Shown one piece after another: positions 20,216 through 27,510 of a stretch of DNA of 64,000 nt. Each line of letters opens with the position of its first letter. The first letter of the stretch is position 1. This DNA comes from Gammaproteobacteria bacterium (lineage in GTDB: Bacteria > Pseudomonadota > Gammaproteobacteria > Pseudomonadales > Azotimanducaceae). The notes beneath the pieces are model-generated. The model worked only from the letters and a program-made list of their open reading frames with translations. It ran no database searches and was not told where the DNA came from. The stretch lies in assembly GCA_009837185.1 (NCBI GenBank), contig VXUA01000083.1, positions 56,371 to 120,370 of the forward strand, given 5' to 3'. Made by a program: the position numbers and the translations under genes.

Positions 20216-20572
20216 ATGAAAGAGTCTAGATACACGGTAAAAATGTCAGTTGCGGCAGCACTTAGATTTCGCGTGATGTTTCATTTTTTTCGGTTCCTAC
20301 AGATAGTCATAGCACCAGTACTGCTTTATGTCATGCTGTTTTACAAGAATACACGTGAAATTCATAAGTTCGATCTACCATCAAATTGTCTATTTACCGC
20401 TATCGATCAAACACCTTGGTGGAACATACCACCCTACGGGTTGATTCTGGTGGGCTTTCTGTTGTACGGTGTCATTGTCTGGATCTTTCATGACAGAAAT
20501 AATGAAAGCGGAATCGTAAATCTTGTGAACAAAAACATAAACAGTGATGAATCGATCGAGGTCAAAATATAA
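20216..20572 (+). CDS. Small hypothetical membrane protein (two predicted transmembrane helices)
   Basis: 118-aa ORF with two hydrophobic segments. No recognisable family. It lies just outside the left island repeat. Confidence 0.35.
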   Translation: MKESRYTVKMSVAAALRFRVMFHFFRFLQIVIAPVLLYVMLFYKNTREIHKFDLPSNCLFTAIDQTPWWNIPPYGLILVGFLLYGVIVWIFHDRNNESGIVNLVNKNINSDESIEVKI

Positions 20573-20681: not shown

Positions 20682-21356
20682 TTATTGTTGCACTAGAACC
20701 GAGAGTGTCTCCAATCCCTTTTTTACAATCACCCGCTCAATGTGATTCTGAATATCGGGAACAGCGTAAACCACAGTGAGTTCGACTACTCTTTCACCTC
20801 TTCGACGTCGCGTTTTCCAATGTGAGTATTTATACTCTTGAATTCTTGTAAAGCTTGCGTCGTCGCGGCTATGAGGCATCGGTTTGGTACACCCACTATT
20901 TATAGGACACAACCAAATGTTTGAGAAGTGAGCGTCAATCAATGATCTCGTATTCACTTCTAATATCTCATGTTCTCGGAGATGGTATTCCCTCGATGTT
21001 GTCATTCGATGAAGTCGTTCCTCACTCAACCAAAAAAACACTTTTGAATTTAGTAAAGCATACCAATCAGACGGTGTGATGTGGGACGGTAGACAACGAT
21101 ACAGTCCTGAGTCGCTCATGGCTTTTTGATCACGAATTACGGCATCATACAATCCTGGAGAACTTATAGTCGTACTTGATGGGCGATGTTCACGTTCAAG
21201 TGCTTCTCGCTTTGCTCCTCTTACGTCGTATAGGTCTAAGAGAGCCGAAGTACTACGTAAACCGTGCTTTCTAATGGAAGGCCAGGAGTGTCTCTCCGCC
21301 ATATGGTAGAGGATTGGGGAATCCTCAAGAAGTTCCTCTAGCTCTTGACTGGTCAC
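20682..21356 (-). CDS. Candidate DarT-like ADP-ribosyltransferase-fold protein (putative toxin/effector; may correspond to the family annotated DUF7002)
   Basis: N-terminal ILYHMAERHSWPSIRKHGL resembles the DarT/DUF4433 motif (YH-x-T-x-x-NL-x-SIL-x-x-GL, with the NAD-binding His). KVFFWLS resembles the DarT YVPFYF strand. C-terminal GERVVELTVVYAVPDI resembles the catalytic-Glu strand (AEFLVYEAFP). It overlaps the upstream gene by 4 nt. Motif-level similarity from memory only. Confidence 0.45.
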   Translation of the reverse strand: MTSQELEELLEDSPILYHMAERHSWPSIRKHGLRSTSALLDLYDVRGAKREALEREHRPSSTTISSPGLYDAVIRDQKAMSDSGLYRCLPSHITPSDWYALLNSKVFFWLSEERLHRMTTSREYHLREHEILEVNTRSLIDAHFSNIWLCPINSGCTKPMPHSRDDASFTRIQEYKYSHWKTRRRRGERVVELTVVYAVPDIQNHIERVIVKKGLETLSVLVQQ

Positions 21357-22987
21357 CAGGTTCTCCTGTCAATAATATTGCGCCAACCAAACCCAGTAGA
21401 CAATAGCGACACGGGTCGACCTGACACTCTCTCAATTTCTTCAACAAATCGAATGGTCTCTTCACTGAGTTGTTCAAACCGGTATGCTCTTCTATTCTCA
21501 ACCCCTAAGTAGTCTACAAACGTCAGGGCAATGTCGGTTGGTCCGTTTAACTGTATGGAATCCTTGAACTGTTCCCAATCGAATTCGGCGATACGTCGAG
21601 ACCTCTTTGTTGTAGTTGTGGTCTCAGTTGCTCTAAGCTCTTCCAAATCAATCTTACTACGTTCGTTTAGCTCTTCAATGTTTATTTCATATTTCAATGG
21701 TCCTGAAGGTCCGGCGACACGAATAGGATATGTACGACACACCATCACTATGTTTCTAACATTTGAAGGAGCGATACCAGCGTCTGAAAGGCATCCAGCA
21801 ACAGTGGTGTCTCGTGAGGTAACATACGGATATTGACCATGATGTAGACTCAACGTGGTACCCTGTGTTCCTTCTAACAAAATTTTTTTGTTCCTAACGA
21901 ATGCTTCGGCTAGCACCTCCCGGGCACTTCCAATATAGGGTTTCAACGCGTTGATATCTCGTGCTAATGCGCGTATAGTGTGGTTTTCATATCCAGATCT
22001 CCCTGTCACTTTGTGTGCAGTAGCCACTCCGACACCTTGCGCAGTAGAACCGATGTTTGAAAAGTTCTCTTCTTCGTACTTGATGTCCTCTTCTTGTATA
22101 GTCATGGCTTGGTGATCGATTGTAAGACGGTCGACGGTCACCTTGTGCTGTGCGATCTCTTGGAGCAGTTTGGTCGGATTTATAACCATGCCTGGACCTA
22201 GGAGCAATTTCGCCTCCGGAGCGCGTTGAGTACCCGATGGTAAGTGAAAGTATTTTTCTGGCGTGGGTTCAGCGTATACTTGGTGGCCTGCGTTCGGTCC
22301 GCCAGTTCGAATTAATAGGTTGTATTCAGGAGAAAGATATCCGACTATGTTTCCCTTTCCTTCACTGCCGTATTGTCCACCCACCAGCACGTCCACGATG
22401 TTTGTGTTAGACCGAGGGTATAGATTTAGAAGCGCTGTCGCTCGGATGAGTACATCCTCTTTACTACATCTGTCTGTAGGTACGACCGTATCGGCAATAG
22501 TTGCTAGTTGTTCGACTTTACGTTCAGTTTGGTTCCGAATTGCATCTACATAGTTAGTATTCGTGTCAGAAGTACGATCGCGTTCGTGATAACGTTCTTC
22601 CAAAACATTTGAAGCCGCTGTCAAATGAATATGATGGACACAATTCCCGTACGCACTACGAATAGCTTCTACTTGACCGGAGTTTCTTACACAGTCCACT
22701 ACAAACAACCCACTGGGTACCACGGAATTACTTGTCGCGAAGTCAATTTCACGTTGTATGTGATGAGCTAACCATTGACCTCCATCCCTTCTGTCTAGAC
22801 GATCACCAGCGCGTTGAAGAGCTAATCTATTAGACTGAATACGTGGACTACGACTTTTAATGAAGTCTTTAGTTTTTAAAACTGTTGCACCATATTGGCT
22901 TTCCAATTCCTTAGAAAGGATGGACTTCCCAGAACATATGGGACCAGAAATGAGAACTATACGAAGGGCGTCATCTCGGTGGTTCAA
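21353..22987 (-). CDS. Fusion protein: N-terminal P-loop nucleotide-kinase-like domain plus C-terminal short (archaeal/PurZ-like) adenylosuccinate-synthetase-family domain
   Basis: Residues 1-190 carry Walker A LISGPICSGKS and a Walker-B-like FVVDCVR. Residues about 195-544 align with PurA landmarks. GGQYGSEGKGN corresponds to GDEGKGK, with the catalytic Asp replaced by Ser. GGPNAGH corresponds to GGHNAGH and IGSTAQGVG to IGTTGRGIG. LEGTQGTTLSLHHGQYPYVTSR corresponds to [22 protein letters not shown], and TTTTKRSRR to TTGRRRR. Confidence 0.75.
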   Translation of the reverse strand: MNHRDDALRIVLISGPICSGKSILSKELESQYGATVLKTKDFIKSRSPRIQSNRLALQRAGDRLDRRDGGQWLAHHIQREIDFATSNSVVPSGLFVVDCVRNSGQVEAIRSAYGNCVHHIHLTAASNVLEERYHERDRTSDTNTNYVDAIRNQTERKVEQLATIADTVVPTDRCSKEDVLIRATALLNLYPRSNTNIVDVLVGGQYGSEGKGNIVGYLSPEYNLLIRTGGPNAGHQVYAEPTPEKYFHLPSGTQRAPEAKLLLGPGMVINPTKLLQEIAQHKVTVDRLTIDHQAMTIQEEDIKYEEENFSNIGSTAQGVGVATAHKVTGRSGYENHTIRALARDINALKPYIGSAREVLAEAFVRNKKILLEGTQGTTLSLHHGQYPYVTSRDTTVAGCLSDAGIAPSNVRNIVMVCRTYPIRVAGPSGPLKYEINIEELNERSKIDLEELRATETTTTTKRSRRIAEFDWEQFKDSIQLNGPTDIALTFVDYLGVENRRAYRFEQLSEETIRFVEEIERVSGRPVSLLSTGFGWRNIIDRRTW

Positions 22988-24325
22988 TCAAAACAGCTCC
23001 ACTTTGGGCTTCGAAGGTGGAGAGTCGTACACGTTTACAGTCAGTCCCGCTCTAATAAGAGTGTCGTCCAATATTTCCTCAATTACTTCCCACTTTCCCT
23101 GTGCGCTACCCGTACCAATTCTCGGCATGTGGACACTTGCACCGTTTGTCAATGCAATCTCAGATAATGTGTCTAAACAGCATTCCAATGCAGCGTAGCG
23201 AATTCTGGGAAACATTGACTTTCCATATCCTTCTTGCGCGATTAAGCTCGCTATCGTGGTTTCTTCGTCTACCTTGGTTAGGATTACTTGACCCAACCGT
23301 TTGTCACGAGGAATAGCTCGAATCGCTAGCGAGAAATCACTCTCAGCATCAGGATACATTGATGCCATTTGTTTCGCAACACCTCCTCCCCATCGTCCTG
23401 CTTGATCGTTAACGAGTTGGCAGAGAATCCTCGGAGCATCTCCTCTTGGAGTCAGAACGTTGCCATGAAAATACTCGACTGATGCTAAAGAACTCGTAGT
23501 CGGTTGGAATCCAACAAGTGTAGCAACACGAGGATAGGTTCTTCCGGGATATGCTGGAATTCCAACGCACTCAATAAGACTCCTCGTACCTACAACCCAG
23601 CTTTCTTCGGCTCGATTAGTGTAACCAATGGCCGTGCATTGGGTTACGACACTCTCGTCGGGTACAGGTCGGTTTGATAAGTGGACAGCGGGGGCATTTC
23701 GAGACGCTACGAAATAGTCTATGCGGTAACTCCTTGATGTATCGCTATCACCTCTAGGAGACGCAAAGAACACTATGGTAGGCTGGGCAGAAACCTTTAC
23801 TAGTCGAATGAAAAAGGCCTCCACAGATACGTCGTAGGCACAACATTGTTGCATGAGATCTTCAATTGGTGCAATTTGGGTATTTGGTGTCAAACTTCCG
23901 ATGGGGAGAACAAATTCTGCGGCAGCTAAATTACAAAGCAACTCGAGCTGCCAGGTATCGTCGGAATCTCTGTCGCCGCTGCGATTACGGGTTCGGCAAT
24001 GCCAATCCGAAAACAACAAATGTGCAACTTCGTGTGCAATAGAAAATCGAACCCTAGCTCTAACTTGGTGGGGGTTAAATTCAATGATCGGTTGTGCCTC
24101 ACTCCCAATTAACCTTGCATCTGAAATACTAGAATTTGCTCTGATTTTTGCGTTTAGCATTTCCGCGATAAAGGTCGGATTGAAGGGAGGACCTTCCCAG
24201 CCTGTTTCTTGTGCTTTCAGAACCAAATCTTGTGATCTCTCCTTAATCTTGTGTATTGGATCAGCATTGCCAGCGAATGCGAGAACCGATTCGTTCGTCC
24301 AGTTTATATTGGAATCTTTATCCAT
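22988..24325 (-). CDS. Fusion protein: N-terminal ImmA/IrrE-type (COG2856/M78) zinc metalloprotease, an unassigned middle region, and a C-terminal TARG1/DarG-like macrodomain
   Basis: HEXXH within FSIAHEVAHLLFSD in an ImmA-like N-terminal context. The C-terminal sequence ILCQLVNDQAGRWGGGVAKQMASMY...VHMPRIGTGSAQGKWEVIEEIL...VNVYD parallels TARG1 ([23 protein letters not shown]...[25 protein letters not shown]...ITVYT). The stop abuts the next gene's start (22988/22987). Confidence 0.75.
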   Translation of the reverse strand: MDKDSNINWTNESVLAFAGNADPIHKIKERSQDLVLKAQETGWEGPPFNPTFIAEMLNAKIRANSSISDARLIGSEAQPIIEFNPHQVRARVRFSIAHEVAHLLFSDWHCRTRNRSGDRDSDDTWQLELLCNLAAAEFVLPIGSLTPNTQIAPIEDLMQQCCAYDVSVEAFFIRLVKVSAQPTIVFFASPRGDSDTSRSYRIDYFVASRNAPAVHLSNRPVPDESVVTQCTAIGYTNRAEESWVVGTRSLIECVGIPAYPGRTYPRVATLVGFQPTTSSLASVEYFHGNVLTPRGDAPRILCQLVNDQAGRWGGGVAKQMASMYPDAESDFSLAIRAIPRDKRLGQVILTKVDEETTIASLIAQEGYGKSMFPRIRYAALECCLDTLSEIALTNGASVHMPRIGTGSAQGKWEVIEEILDDTLIRAGLTVNVYDSPPSKPKVELF

Positions 24326-24447
24326 AAATTAACGTCTAATTCTAAAATGCACGTCCTACCTTTCATGATTCGACCAGTCTAGAGTCGTTTGGTCAGAACA
24401 ACTTTTGGAACTGACATGTGACAACTCCAGTAGTGAGCAGTTTCGGG

Positions 24448-27400
24448 CTAATCTTTTTCAACCGTAACGATGCCTATTGCGACTTTATCTATAGCCTGCT
24501 TCATCGACACCGATAAATTCTCTCGTATGAACTTACTCAGCCGTCTCTGATTCCAATCTTCATGTTTACTGACAATATCAAGTGCACTCTCTTCAGCTTG
24601 TATTACTAACTTAACAAGATCTCGATGTCGAGAATTTTCAGTGTCAAAGATCGGAATTGGTACTTTCTTCCAAAATTGAGCATGAAAGTGACGATCAGTT
24701 TCCCGTGTAGCAGAAAATCGATCCTTCAACGACTCCGCATTCAATATCCCCACTAAATATTGAGCCTCCTCTTCGCTAGAAGCATCGAAATAGAAACAAG
24801 ACTCATCTACTAACAGATTGTTCGGAACTCGCGCGGCTCGCAGAATCTTACCGCCTTCGTTGTAGACAACACGAGAACCTTCATTCTTTGACCAAAATTG
24901 CGAAGTAACTTTGTTATAGTGGTTCAGATTCTCGATCAATGTTCTCGGCGTGCCGGCACCTTTGTTGCTCGGACTATCTTCCCATCTTGAACACGCGTTT
25001 CGCCAAAAAGGCACTTGCATTGCGCTCTCATTGTTCACCAAAGTAAACTGCTCAGAGTCCAAAGGTATGATGACCTTTGAGCAAACTGGTCTCACTGAAT
25101 AAGGAAAGAGGTCATAAGAGCGAACAACTGAGTGAATCCATCCTTCAGGTACTTCGAATTCTATCGGTGGATAGTTTTTCCAATGACTCTGTTTTGAAGA
25201 AACCGTCCAACCTCGCGCAGTTCCGTTGTGGTTCAGTCGTAGCGTTGAAGGATTAACGAGTACTAATACATGGGGTCGAAAACATGCACCCTGACGAAAG
25301 ACTGATTTCGCGGTTTTTTCAGAAAAATACTCTGATACGTCTGTGTCATATTGTTGTACGGATTGAGGTACCCGAACAACTTGATCTTGAACAATGTACC
25401 ACGGATCGTTGGGTTTGATTCTCGCCTTTTCAGTACTCATTCGCAGACTTTCATTCTTCTTTCCAATACCAATATACCACACACATGAAGCAGCGGTCGT
25501 AAAAGGTGGCTTTCTAGTCATTAATTCAAGTGAAGAAACGAGTGAATAGTCGTCGCGGAGCCGTTCGCGAAATTTCGCCCAAGTACCGGCACTCAAGGAG
25601 GCAGCATTCAAAACCCACCCAGCTCGGCTAGATTCGTTTGATAAATACATTTGTGAGCACTGTAGGACAAAAGTGCCTGCAACGTCAAAACTTGAAGCAC
25701 GTCTCCCACCGACCCAGAGTTTTAGTCGTTCCGCCAGATCCTTAAAAGTTGTTTTTCGATGTGGATTCTGGACAGTGTTTAATGTGATCCAAGGTGGGTT
25801 TGCGAGTATTCGATTGACTTTACGTTCCGCCAATAGTATCGGTGATATCCAGTTGTTGACATGGTACGCCCAAATACCATTTCCATCGAAATGACAAATA
25901 TCTTTTAACTCGCCAAAACTCTGTTCCAGTAGTTCGGAGTCGACCAAAGACAAATCCACAAACAAATCTGATGGAAATTTCTTCTGAGCGTTCGCTAAAT
26001 CGGTGAACCGTTTCATATCGCGAGCAAAATCCGCACGAGTAACGAACGAGCGAGGTAGGGTGAAAGATCGACCACTCTTTGGGGATCGAAACGTAAAGCT
26101 CTCTTGGCCAGGACGCACTCTCATGAAATCTAGTTCTTGCATTCCCTGACCCCATTCAGCTAAGAGCGAGTCACCCTGCCAAACGTTCAATGCTGAATCC
26201 CCTAGTGTGGGTGGCGCGGGCAGACTTCGTAGTAACGTAGTCTGGGCAAATTCCACTGCCACAGGATGTATATCGATTCCGAAGACTAATCGAGCCACGA
26301 CATCTGCTTGTTCTTCACGCGTCAACTCCATCTCTCTAAGTTTTGATACTTCAACGATTCGCCGAACCGCGTGGTACAGAAATGTCCCTGAACCACAGGT
26401 AGGATCTAGTACTCCCCAAGGCCGTACAATTTCCGATTTCTTCGTACGTCCACAACGCAAAGAGGCTTGAACCGCTTGCCGACACCAATCCTCGTCGAGC
26501 ACCTCTTCCGCAAGCATTTCTGCCAACCAATCGGGAGTGTAATATTCCCCATATATCTTTCGTTGGTCTTTCGGCACAATCTCTTGATACAACACCTGTA
26601 AGATATCGCCTTTTCTTTTACGCCAATCGAACATGTCCGTTTTATCCTGTACAGTCAGCAGCCAAGAATGTCCTTCTTGCACCTGACAAATCCAGTTGAT
26701 GAATCCCTCCGTTTGTAGACGCTCGCGTTCGTGCGAATCATGTGCATCTGGATCTACAAGAGCATTTCGTACAGCACGAGCAAAAGACACTAGCGCACAA
26801 TGACGTACAAACATAGTTTGTGCTTCTGATTCGTTACCATAGTCCATACCTGAAGCACGTATTGCATCCCACCAAAGATTAAACTGAATTTGGGCACCGC
26901 GCAGTTCTCTAGCTTGCTCCCAAATAGTCTGTAGTTGAGTCGCGTCATTAGCATACAGAATGTGAGGATTGAGCGGCGCTAACGGTTTACTTCCGTCTGA
27001 GCCTAATAAACGTAAGAACTCAACAATCGAACTTGGATCATTTCTAACATCCAATCGGACGGGTTCTGGCGAAAGTGGTTCCATTGCTCCAGGAGCATCT
27101 TGCCATTTCCACACCAACCATTGCTGGCCATCGGTAAGCACCACCGTCCACTCAAGTCTCTGCGCACTTTCAAGTTGTAGGTAACTAGCCTCCAACTGAC
27201 GAATACTTACTACGTAGCGTCGTACTTGTTCGAATTGAGTACCACCTGTTTGAAGTTGCGACTTCACGATCTTTCCAGTCGGTTTGCATTCAATCAATGT
27301 CCGATGCCCATGTAAATAGATGTCTACCGGGCCATCCCCCGTTTCCCATTGTTGCTCTGGTGAGAGTTTTAGTTCCTCGCAGAGATTGACTAGTGCTGTC

Positions 27401-27510
27401 TCCAACGATGCTTCTTTCGCATGTTTCTTACTCACCACGCTCAACAAGTCAACGAGCTTTTCTGAAATTTCTAATTGCAATTTATGCTGTCGAGTGTTTA
27501 AACAGTACAT
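24448..27510 (-). CDS. Type IIG/IIL-like (MmeI-like architecture) fused restriction endonuclease / N6-adenine DNA methyltransferase / target-recognition protein
   Basis: 1020 aa. N-terminal PD-(D/E)xK-like motif VDIYLHGHRTLIECKP. Gamma-class methyltransferase motifs in the order X, I, IV: YGEYYTPDWLAEML, VLDPTCGSGTFLYHAV and ILANPPWITL. The C-terminal ~400 aa would serve as the specificity domain. No separate S, R or BREX genes are nearby. Confidence 0.65.
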   Translation of the reverse strand: MYCLNTRQHKLQLEISEKLVDLLSVVSKKHAKEASLETALVNLCEELKLSPEQQWETGDGPVDIYLHGHRTLIECKPTGKIVKSQLQTGGTQFEQVRRYVVSIRQLEASYLQLESAQRLEWTVVLTDGQQWLVWKWQDAPGAMEPLSPEPVRLDVRNDPSSIVEFLRLLGSDGSKPLAPLNPHILYANDATQLQTIWEQARELRGAQIQFNLWWDAIRASGMDYGNESEAQTMFVRHCALVSFARAVRNALVDPDAHDSHERERLQTEGFINWICQVQEGHSWLLTVQDKTDMFDWRKRKGDILQVLYQEIVPKDQRKIYGEYYTPDWLAEMLAEEVLDEDWCRQAVQASLRCGRTKKSEIVRPWGVLDPTCGSGTFLYHAVRRIVEVSKLREMELTREEQADVVARLVFGIDIHPVAVEFAQTTLLRSLPAPPTLGDSALNVWQGDSLLAEWGQGMQELDFMRVRPGQESFTFRSPKSGRSFTLPRSFVTRADFARDMKRFTDLANAQKKFPSDLFVDLSLVDSELLEQSFGELKDICHFDGNGIWAYHVNNWISPILLAERKVNRILANPPWITLNTVQNPHRKTTFKDLAERLKLWVGGRRASSFDVAGTFVLQCSQMYLSNESSRAGWVLNAASLSAGTWAKFRERLRDDYSLVSSLELMTRKPPFTTAASCVWYIGIGKKNESLRMSTEKARIKPNDPWYIVQDQVVRVPQSVQQYDTDVSEYFSEKTAKSVFRQGACFRPHVLVLVNPSTLRLNHNGTARGWTVSSKQSHWKNYPPIEFEVPEGWIHSVVRSYDLFPYSVRPVCSKVIIPLDSEQFTLVNNESAMQVPFWRNACSRWEDSPSNKGAGTPRTLIENLNHYNKVTSQFWSKNEGSRVVYNEGGKILRAARVPNNLLVDESCFYFDASSEEEAQYLVGILNAESLKDRFSATRETDRHFHAQFWKKVPIPIFDTENSRHRDLVKLVIQAEESALDIVSKHEDWNQRRLSKFIRENLSVSMKQAIDKVAIGIVTVEKD
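27500..27510 (+). repeat. Right copy of the exact 11-bp direct repeat (AAACAGTACAT); overlaps the start codon of the methyltransferase gene
   Basis: Identical to 20587-20597. AACAGTAC recurs 6 nt further on, at 27516-27523. Confidence 0.4.

Follow-up and report, generated by a model that had tools for sequence, protein, structure and literature searches.

Systems that ADP-ribosylate nucleic acids and proteins, such as DarTG, CmdTAC and the phage enzymes Alt and Mod, are drawing rapidly growing attention in research on phage defence and toxins. DarT2 and DarT1 are ADP-ribosyltransferases (ARTs) of single-stranded DNA, specific for thymidine and guanosine respectively. Here we analyze a gene from a 64,000-nucleotide stretch of the genome of an Azotimanducaceae gammaproteobacterium (GenBank assembly GCA_009837185.1, contig VXUA01000083.1, positions 56,371 to 120,370 of the forward strand), hereafter the window. 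The gene lies at window positions 20682-21356 on the minus strand, encodes a 224-residue protein of the Pfam family DUF7002 and closes a three-gene cassette that recurs in several phyla. On balance, we favour the explanation that its product is a DarT-like mono-ADP-ribosyltransferase, serving as the writer of a mobile conflict cassette.

The closest described family comes from a 2025 survey of ART-like proteins in Legionella (BMC Genomics, PMC12522546). In the consulted passages of that survey, a family named Lmac_3114 is placed in the H-Y-E clade with the motifs Hxx, FFW and xxE; DarT and Tpt1 are given as its nearest relatives and DNA as its computationally predicted target. According to the same passages, 60% of cases have an adenylosuccinate-synthetase domain nearby; operons are described from Rhizobium and Mesorhizobium, and Pseudomonas aeruginosa has a variant that combines AAA, adenylosuccinate synthetase and NUDIX domains. 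DUF7002 has the corresponding features. H18, F107-F108-W109 and E192 reproduce the three motifs, adenylosuccinate synthetase with an AAA/kinase part is likewise the commonest neighbour at about 60% (43 of 72 loci as trios, plus two-gene modules), and the taxa overlap, for example in Mesorhizobium and Burkholderia. Lmac_3114 therefore appears to be DUF7002, a match made by motifs, neighbourhood and taxa.

As far as the consulted passages go, an ART identity for DUF7002 has thus been predicted before by computation (PMC12522546), and we found no description of the full cassette composition. Those passages are silent on the peptidase-macrodomain gene, the PurZ-type serine, the branch linked to ADP-ribosylglycohydrolase (ARH) or the mobile context. 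The cassette is likewise not mentioned in the Aravind survey of NAD and ADP-ribose systems. Literature searches on the combination of PurZ, anti-phage activity and ADP-ribose, and on PurA-like defence, returned nothing relevant, and a full-text search for DUF7002 or PF22531 found no paper mentioning either.

Family, fold and predicted active site

The minus-strand open reading frame (ORF) at 20682-21356 matches Pfam DUF7002 (PF22531) over its full length (E=3.7e-70; 235.9 bits against a cut-off of 27), with residues 14-205 covering profile positions 1-194 of 195. The copy has no frame defect and keeps all family-invariant residues. A search of 5.8 billion proteins recovered 2,695 relatives, and a HMMER scan gave 1,493 clusters at 50% identity, of which 350 fall below 1e-30. 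An alignment of 40 sequences with 37-65% identity to the query shows no variation at H18, G32, L33, S35, T36, R58, D76, L85, W98, L102, N103, F107, F108, N153, G155, R164, F169 and E192. The same residues are prominent among 122 cluster representatives that are 31-51% identical to the query.

Two AlphaFold2 models of the protein were built from different alignments. The first, based on close homologues only, had a predicted local distance difference test score (pLDDT) of 83.9 and a predicted template modelling score (pTM) of 0.83; the second, based on 40 diverse sequences from the genome loci, reached 94.5 and 0.91. When the models were searched against the PDB with Foldseek, ART-fold proteins made up all of the top 50 matches for model 1 and 48 of the top 50 for model 2. 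Probabilities were 0.9-1.0 for the best matches, with E-values down to 3.2e-4, template modelling (TM) scores of 0.40-0.46 and 9-15% identity. DarT ranked first in both runs, with Mycobacterium tuberculosis DarT (7yk3) at E=8e-4 for model 1 and 3.2e-4 for model 2; Escherichia coli DarT1 (8baq, E=1.4e-3) and the Thermus and Thermosipho DarT structures were also matched. The A chains of cholera, heat-labile and pertussis toxins were interleaved with DarT, and Tpt1/KptA structures stood below both (E 0.06-0.4). The Foldseek viral library gave only non-significant matches. Both models thus place the DUF7002 protein in the ADP-ribosyltransferase fold.

Profile alignment was made with DarT as the only ART family compared. 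The DarT set comprised genes from 12 genomes, each adjoining a DarG-like macrodomain gene. With hhalign, 122 diverse DUF7002 sequences aligned with the 12 DarT sequences at E=7.3e-4 over 182 columns, and another DUF7002 alignment gave E=0.001 over the N-terminal 55 columns. When a shallow alignment was used (effective number of sequences, Neff, 1.9), only 28 N-terminal columns aligned, covering the His motif alone.

The first of the predicted active-site motifs comprises strand beta1 and the following helix (ILYHMAERHSWPSIRKHGL, residues 15-33; 21258-21314, minus strand). The invariant H18 (codon 21303-21305) lies on the predicted strand 15-21 and is paired with the His of DarT 'IYHITH' by the full-length hhalign at a confidence of 9/9; the invariant G32 is paired with an invariant Gly of DarT in the same alignment. 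R58 (in HRP; 21183-21185), present in 99-100% of DUF7002 sequences, is a candidate equivalent of the arginine of DarT 'KxRR'. It stands one column off the invariant DarT Arg in the full-length alignment, and H57-R58 falls opposite DarT 'RR' in the second.

The candidate aromatic strand of motif II is KVFFWLS (residues 105-111; 21024-21044, minus strand), with the predicted strand beta2 at 105-109, in which F107 and F108 are invariant and W109 is at least 90% conserved. From residue 105, the predicted order is strand KVFFW, helix, strand, helix, strand, long loop, Glu strand and strand. The elements of DarT run in the same order: YVPFYF, helix, IVHLVS, helix, PWAFT, ADP-ribosylating turn-turn (ARTT) loop, AEFLV and IGV. 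The FFW strand is likely to be the motif II strand, as it fits both the element order and an hhalign of the C-terminal halves, which pairs VFFW with VPFYF at a non-significant E=0.14. The FFW given as motif II of Lmac_3114 in the consulted passages agrees with this equivalence (PMC12522546).

The basic stretch KTRRRRGER (residues 181-189; 20790-20816, minus strand) occupies the long beta4-beta5 loop, at the position of the ARTT substrate loop. It falls between the predicted strands 147-150 and 192-196 and includes R184, which is at least 90% conserved; from its place in the model, it may contact the substrate. The Glu strand follows (RVVELTVVYAVPDI, residues 189-202; 20751-20792, minus strand), with the invariant E192 (20781-20783) on the predicted strand beta5 (191/192-196). 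Both the full-length and the C-half hhalign pair E192 with the invariant catalytic Glu of DarT 'QAEFLV'. Alignment therefore supports the assignment of H18 as the motif I His and of E192 as the predicted catalytic Glu.

These results bear on the original prediction, which had been made from the DNA letters and translated ORFs alone and had described the protein as a candidate nucleic-acid ART. The 224-residue ORF and all three peptides that it quoted are present in the order given (residues 15-33, 105-111 and 189-202). The candidate ART interpretation is supported by Foldseek on two models, with DarT first, and by hhalign at E=7e-4. The comparison by profile and structure that had been proposed in advance as a means of refuting it returned ART matches. 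Its reading of the three peptides as DarT elements holds for the His and Glu pairings, which hhalign reproduces; the equivalence of FFW and YVPFYF depends on element order and on the C-half alignment. The suggestion that low similarity to DarT marks a separate ART clade agrees with the lack of a Pfam DarT match and TM scores of about 0.4.

A mobile cassette with variable composition

Two genes precede the DUF7002 gene on the minus strand. The first gene of the cassette (22988-24325) encodes an IrrE/CapP-like M78 metallopeptidase (Pfam Peptidase_M78; HEVAH at 24020-24034) with a C-terminal macrodomain (Pfam Macro; about 22991-23479). It matches the PADLOC model for capP at 1.2e-17 and that for DarG at E=4e-4, the latter over the macrodomain part only. 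The macrodomain is nearest to BT1257 and SCO6735 (E about 1e-21 to 1e-19) and more distantly related to ALC1, Poa1-like and TARG1 macrodomains; its N-terminal part matches an ADP-ribose-1''-phosphate phosphatase (6lfu, 1.5e-8).

In the product of the second gene (21353-22987), a short PurA/PurZ-like domain (GSEGKG, 22352-22369) is joined to a P-loop kinase (Walker motif GPICSGKS, 22922-22945); its Pfam matches are to Adenylsucc_synt (1e-57) and AAA_18/AAA_33, with a weak one to dNK. The kinase part resembles the N-terminal domain of anti-phage dCTP deaminases. The PurA-like domain falls below the NCBIfam cut-offs for archaeal PurA and PurZ alike; its nearest solved structure is Pyrococcus PurA (2e-51), and phage PurZ matches at 1e-34. 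The GTG start codon of DUF7002 (21356-21354) overlaps the TGA of this gene by four nucleotides as GTGA (21356-21353), and AGGAGA, a ribosome-binding site, lies 5 nucleotides upstream of it (21367-21362). Because of this start/stop overlap and AGGAGA (together 21353-21367, minus strand), the two genes are taken to be translationally coupled.

To survey the cassette, one genome per species was scanned, giving 80 loci, of which 72 had enough upstream sequence to be informative. The complete trio was found in 43 of the 72, in the same gene order and usually with overlapping or abutting genes. Remnants or the kinase-PurA-like gene only accompanied DUF7002 in seven loci, and DUF7002 stood alone in 22. 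An Adenylsucc_synt gene lies immediately upstream of DUF7002 in the window and in 45 of the 72 loci; the kinase-PurA-like gene, not the eraser, is hence the most constant partner. Trios occur in Pseudomonadota, Myxococcota, Binatota, Verrucomicrobiota, Gemmatimonadota and Acidobacteriota. Across loci, the identities of the three proteins to the window copies co-vary (r = 0.91-0.95), a descriptive figure given that the loci are related.

The DUF7002 tree is incongruent with taxonomy. In Mariluticola, a Trb conjugation cluster is followed by the trio and then by a Lit-like Peptidase_U49 gene, and the neighbours of the trio in another genome are HsdR, HNH and UvrD/kinase genes. By tblastn, 24 plasmid records contain the family, and no phage record was matched. 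Within the genus of the window, two of 29 genomes carry the family. In the second, the trio is divergent (45/47/39% identity) and sits elsewhere on the chromosome, at an unrelated site (G002:C1:1314000-1333000; L112, 6557-10127), which points to independent acquisition within the genus. On account of the spread of the trio, its conjugation and restriction neighbours, the plasmid records and its presence in 2/29 genomes of the genus, the cassette is horizontally mobile and accessory, of the kind that gathers in defence islands.

About ten alphaproteobacterial loci have a fourth gene, which overlaps the end of DUF7002 and encodes a 374-residue HExxH protein that weakly matches Pfam Peptidase_U49 (Lit-like) (L107, 10666-11790; L004, L007, L009, L012, L013, L023, L031, L049 and L059). 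This gene is absent from the window.

Many copies lack the macrodomain gene. Two-gene modules, in which the kinase-PurA-like gene overlaps DUF7002, occur on plasmids of Burkholderia thailandensis and Rhizobium sp. Kim5 and at loci L064 and L080; no macrodomain gene was listed or found near any of these four. In the B. thailandensis plasmid (L110, 5305-7648) and the Rhizobium sp. Kim5 plasmid (L111, 5395-7687), an 'adenylosuccinate synthetase' of 537-571 residues overlaps a DUF7002 'hypothetical protein', and the modules adjoin transposase, integrase, PDDEXK, AbiJ-NTD4 and RelA/SpoT-domain genes. The solitary copies form two deep clades, in Pelagibius-like bacteria and in Ktedonobacterales, and others are scattered within trio clades with at least six changes on well-supported branches. 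In Ktedonobacterales, an ADP-ribosylglycohydrolase gene (PF03747, 1.6e-80) lies upstream of solitary DUF7002 in three of five loci, all of one lineage: directly upstream at L075 (4088-5035) and L078 (7019-7966), and about 1 kb away at L079 (1462-2406). In some partial loci, the ART gene is intact and the upstream genes are truncated.

The solitary copies keep H18, R58, NFFW, N-x-G, R164 and E192 in nearly all of the 22 cases; the exceptions are one with W109 replaced by Ser and one lacking the E192 column. R75 (21132-21134) behaves differently, as it is kept in all intact trio-linked copies and is N or S in 8 of the 22 solitary ones; it may contribute to specificity, in connection with the partner genes.

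The original prediction had the operon begin with a macrodomain protein and treated this as the classic antidote to an ART toxin. A macrodomain is indeed encoded in the first conserved gene (22988-24325), but as the C-terminal part of an M78/IrrE/CapP-like peptidase, and the antidote logic is weakened by the two-gene and solitary copies that have no macrodomain.

A 122-nucleotide gap separates the cassette from a type IIG restriction-modification gene upstream (24448-27510, minus strand; 1020 residues). The gap holds a promoter-like site on the minus strand (24339-24366), a weak consensus match at 9 of 12 positions. Since not one of the 80 related loci conserves the type IIG gene, it was rejected as an operon member; it stands beside the cassette as an independent neighbour, in keeping with a defence island. 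Past the other end of the cassette lies a convergent ORF of 118 residues (20216-20572, plus strand) with predicted membrane segments and no significant Pfam match.

Proposed mechanism and alternatives

The DUF7002 protein is very probably an active ART, and would be of the H-aromatic-E (DarT/PARP-like) type. Under the mechanism we propose, NAD+ would be held by H18 on beta1 and by the F107-F108-W109 strand, the acceptor would be held by the long basic beta4-beta5 loop (residues 152-190), and E192 at the start of beta5 would act as the catalytic glutamate that promotes transfer. A single ADP-ribose would be moved from NAD+ to a macromolecule. Nucleic acid is our first guess for this acceptor by analogy with DarT, a tentative choice that falls somewhat short of an even chance.

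At the level of the cassette, DUF7002 would be the writer or effector, and the macrodomain encoded by the first gene an eraser that reverses or limits the modification. The fused IrrE/CapP-type peptidase may act as a switch that responds to stress or infection, and the kinase-PurZ-like fusion would provide or take away a nucleotide on which the system depends. DUF7002 is probably one arm of an uncharacterised bacterial conflict system, whether for defence or of toxin-antidote type; we regard the narrower claim that the cassette is a defence or addiction module as evenly balanced.

Several observations weigh against a DarT-like writer. The likeness to DarT in the modelled fold is real yet distant, with TM scores of 0.40-0.46 and E-values no better than 3e-4. 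PADLOC and NCBIfam hold no model that matches the 224-residue protein, and neither the single protein nor its profile matched PDB chains by sequence. The motif II assignment is insecure: the full-length hhalign sets R75-D76-Q77 opposite DarT D-Y-V at low confidence. R75-D76-Q77 was rejected as motif II, as this pairing has a confidence of 2/9 and skips one DarT strand. The nearest solved relative of the macrodomain with a published function, SCO6735, is known as a protein-Glu de-ADP-ribosylase and not as a DNA one. In addition, NAD+ docked in a non-standard place in the Lmac_3114 model, according to the consulted passages of the Legionella survey (PMC12522546). Finally, copies without an eraser are common and nearly all retain H18 and E192, which argues against a constitutively lethal toxin dependent on the macrodomain. 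The enzyme is evidently tolerated without a dedicated eraser; it is possible that it needs activation, that its product is non-lethal, or that other cellular hydrolases are sufficient.

The best-surviving alternative, though an unlikely one, is that the enzyme mono-ADP-ribosylates a protein, either of host or phage or its own partner, with the macrodomain freeing an acidic side chain. In both fold searches, the A chains of the cholera, heat-labile and pertussis toxins come close to DarT in score, and the macrodomain is nearest to BT1257 and to SCO6735, a hydrolase of protein-Glu ADP-ribose. ARH enzymes, one of which lies upstream of DUF7002 in Ktedonobacterales, mostly act on proteins. The predicted active site nevertheless differs from that of the cholera-toxin-like R-S-E clade, membership of which was rejected: beta1 carries the invariant His18 in place of Arg, and the Glu strand reads V-V-E, not E-x-E. 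The S35-T36-S37 triplet was likewise rejected as the S-T-S of that clade, since it directly follows helix 1 and is not on a beta2-equivalent strand. DarT was, moreover, the top match both times, and a DNA target is predicted for Lmac_3114 in the consulted passages (PMC12522546).

Less likely still is that the protein acts with the kinase-PurZ-like enzyme in a small-molecule pathway. Either it would ADP-ribosylate a (2-amino)purine nucleotide or aspartyl adduct supplied by the second gene, or it would make an ADP-ribose-derived signal; the macrodomain, ARH or NUDIX enzymes would trim the product. To our knowledge, no ART with a DarT-like fold makes a nucleotide signal, and the IrrE/CapP peptidase, the Lit-like peptidase and the restriction and conjugation context fit an effector acting on a macromolecule. 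Nonetheless, this pathway would account for the constancy of the kinase-PurA-like neighbour and its overlapping frame, the two-gene modules without macrodomain on plasmids and chromosomes, the PurZ hallmark Ser in the PurA-like domain and the apparent tolerance of solitary copies. The adenylosuccinate synthetase neighbour in 60% of cases in the consulted survey passages also speaks for it (PMC12522546).

It is very improbable that the protein is a Tpt1/KptA-like enzyme acting on phosphates (RNA 2'-phosphate removal or 5'-phosphate capping) or an NAD+-depleting glycohydrolase. Tpt1/KptA structures do appear in both fold searches with a low root-mean-square deviation (4-5 Angstrom), the N-terminal part of the macrodomain matches the phosphatase 6lfu (1.5e-8), and the fused kinase could create a phosphate acceptor. 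Tpt1, with its catalytic tetrad R-H-R-R, carries R-H, however, where DUF7002 has Y17-H18. Tpt1/KptA membership was rejected given the weaker fold matches (E 0.06-0.4), the lack of a PTS_2-RNA Pfam match and the invariant Glu, which is absent in Tpt1 as given in the consulted passages (PMC12522546); an NADase, for its part, would not need an eraser partner. A non-catalytic ART-fold subunit that binds or regulates the kinase-PurA-like enzyme would fit the tolerated solitary and two-gene forms and the atypical NAD+ docking in those passages (PMC12522546), but can practically be dismissed, as sequences at 37-65% identity to the query share an unchanging set of His, Glu and some ten further polar residues, an active-site pattern, and His and Glu are both kept in nearly all solitary copies.

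Comparison with known systems

Among known enzymes, the DUF7002 protein most resembles DarT. DarT is its best structural match, the N-terminal '(I/L)YH...G' motif and the Glu strand can be aligned, and strands and helices follow the same order. It differs in having no match to the Pfam DarT family (PF14487, DUF4433) even at E<=0.1 and no PADLOC or NCBIfam DarT match. Identity to DarT is 11-14% at a TM score of about 0.4, and the aromatic strand reads FFW in place of YVPFYF. Membership of the DarT family was therefore rejected, the only relation being profile-to-profile at E=7e-4 to 1e-3.

The cassette likewise resembles DarTG in part. Both include an operon macrodomain of the broad ALC1/TARG1/DarG-like class, and both are found in mobile and defence contexts. 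In the cassette, however, an M78 peptidase is fused to the macrodomain, which has no DarG C-terminal domain; the kinase-PurZ-like gene stands between eraser and writer, unlike in two-gene DarTG, and many copies have no eraser. Membership of the DarTG system was rejected, since the first gene scores 13.1 bits against an NCBIfam antitoxin_DarG cut-off of 250 and is not adjacent to the ART gene. That gene also recalls the CapH/CapP, ImmR/ImmA and IrrE/DdrO switches by its CapP match (1.2e-17), Peptidase_M78 domain and HExxH motif. It differs from them in having no adjacent helix-turn-helix repressor partner and in the fusion of the peptidase to a macrodomain.

To what was known, the window adds an intact, translationally coupled copy of DUF7002 with a reproducible ART fold for which DarT is the nearest neighbour. 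It also provides evidence that DUF7002 travels as one unit with two partners, a protease-fused ADP-ribose eraser and a cellular enzyme that has the PurZ hallmark serine, and that the kinase-PurA-like gene, not the macrodomain, is its steadiest partner. A more speculative possibility, which we consider unlikely, is that DUF7002 and the kinase-PurZ-like protein form the core of a new kind of immune or conflict system. This would tie ADP-ribosylation to 2-aminopurine/guanine nucleotide chemistry, and in trios the eraser would be gated by the fused infection- or damage-sensing protease. Possible targets of the writer would be, for example, bases or nucleotides of the guanine or 2-aminoadenine type that are recognized or made by the PurZ-like domain. 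Such a system would be a protease-switched, nucleotide-coupled relative of DarTG without characterised precedent.

The kinase-PurZ-like protein itself departs from PurZ in being cellular, in its P-loop kinase fusion and in lacking the partner genes for 2-aminoadenine (Z). It resembles PurZ and archaeal short PurA in being of the short type, with Ser in place of the catalytic Asp13: every PurA structure in the alignment reads GDEGKG, the domain GSEGKG. PurA has Asp13 conserved at 99% and Ser there in only about 1%, whereas phage PurZ sequences carry the Ser in 100% of cases (PMC12884076). On alignment, this serine is the PurZ hallmark, carried by a cellular gene. Should the cassette turn out to serve in defence, ADP-ribosylation and purine-nucleotide chemistry would be linked in it, and PurZ-like enzymes would gain a cellular context.

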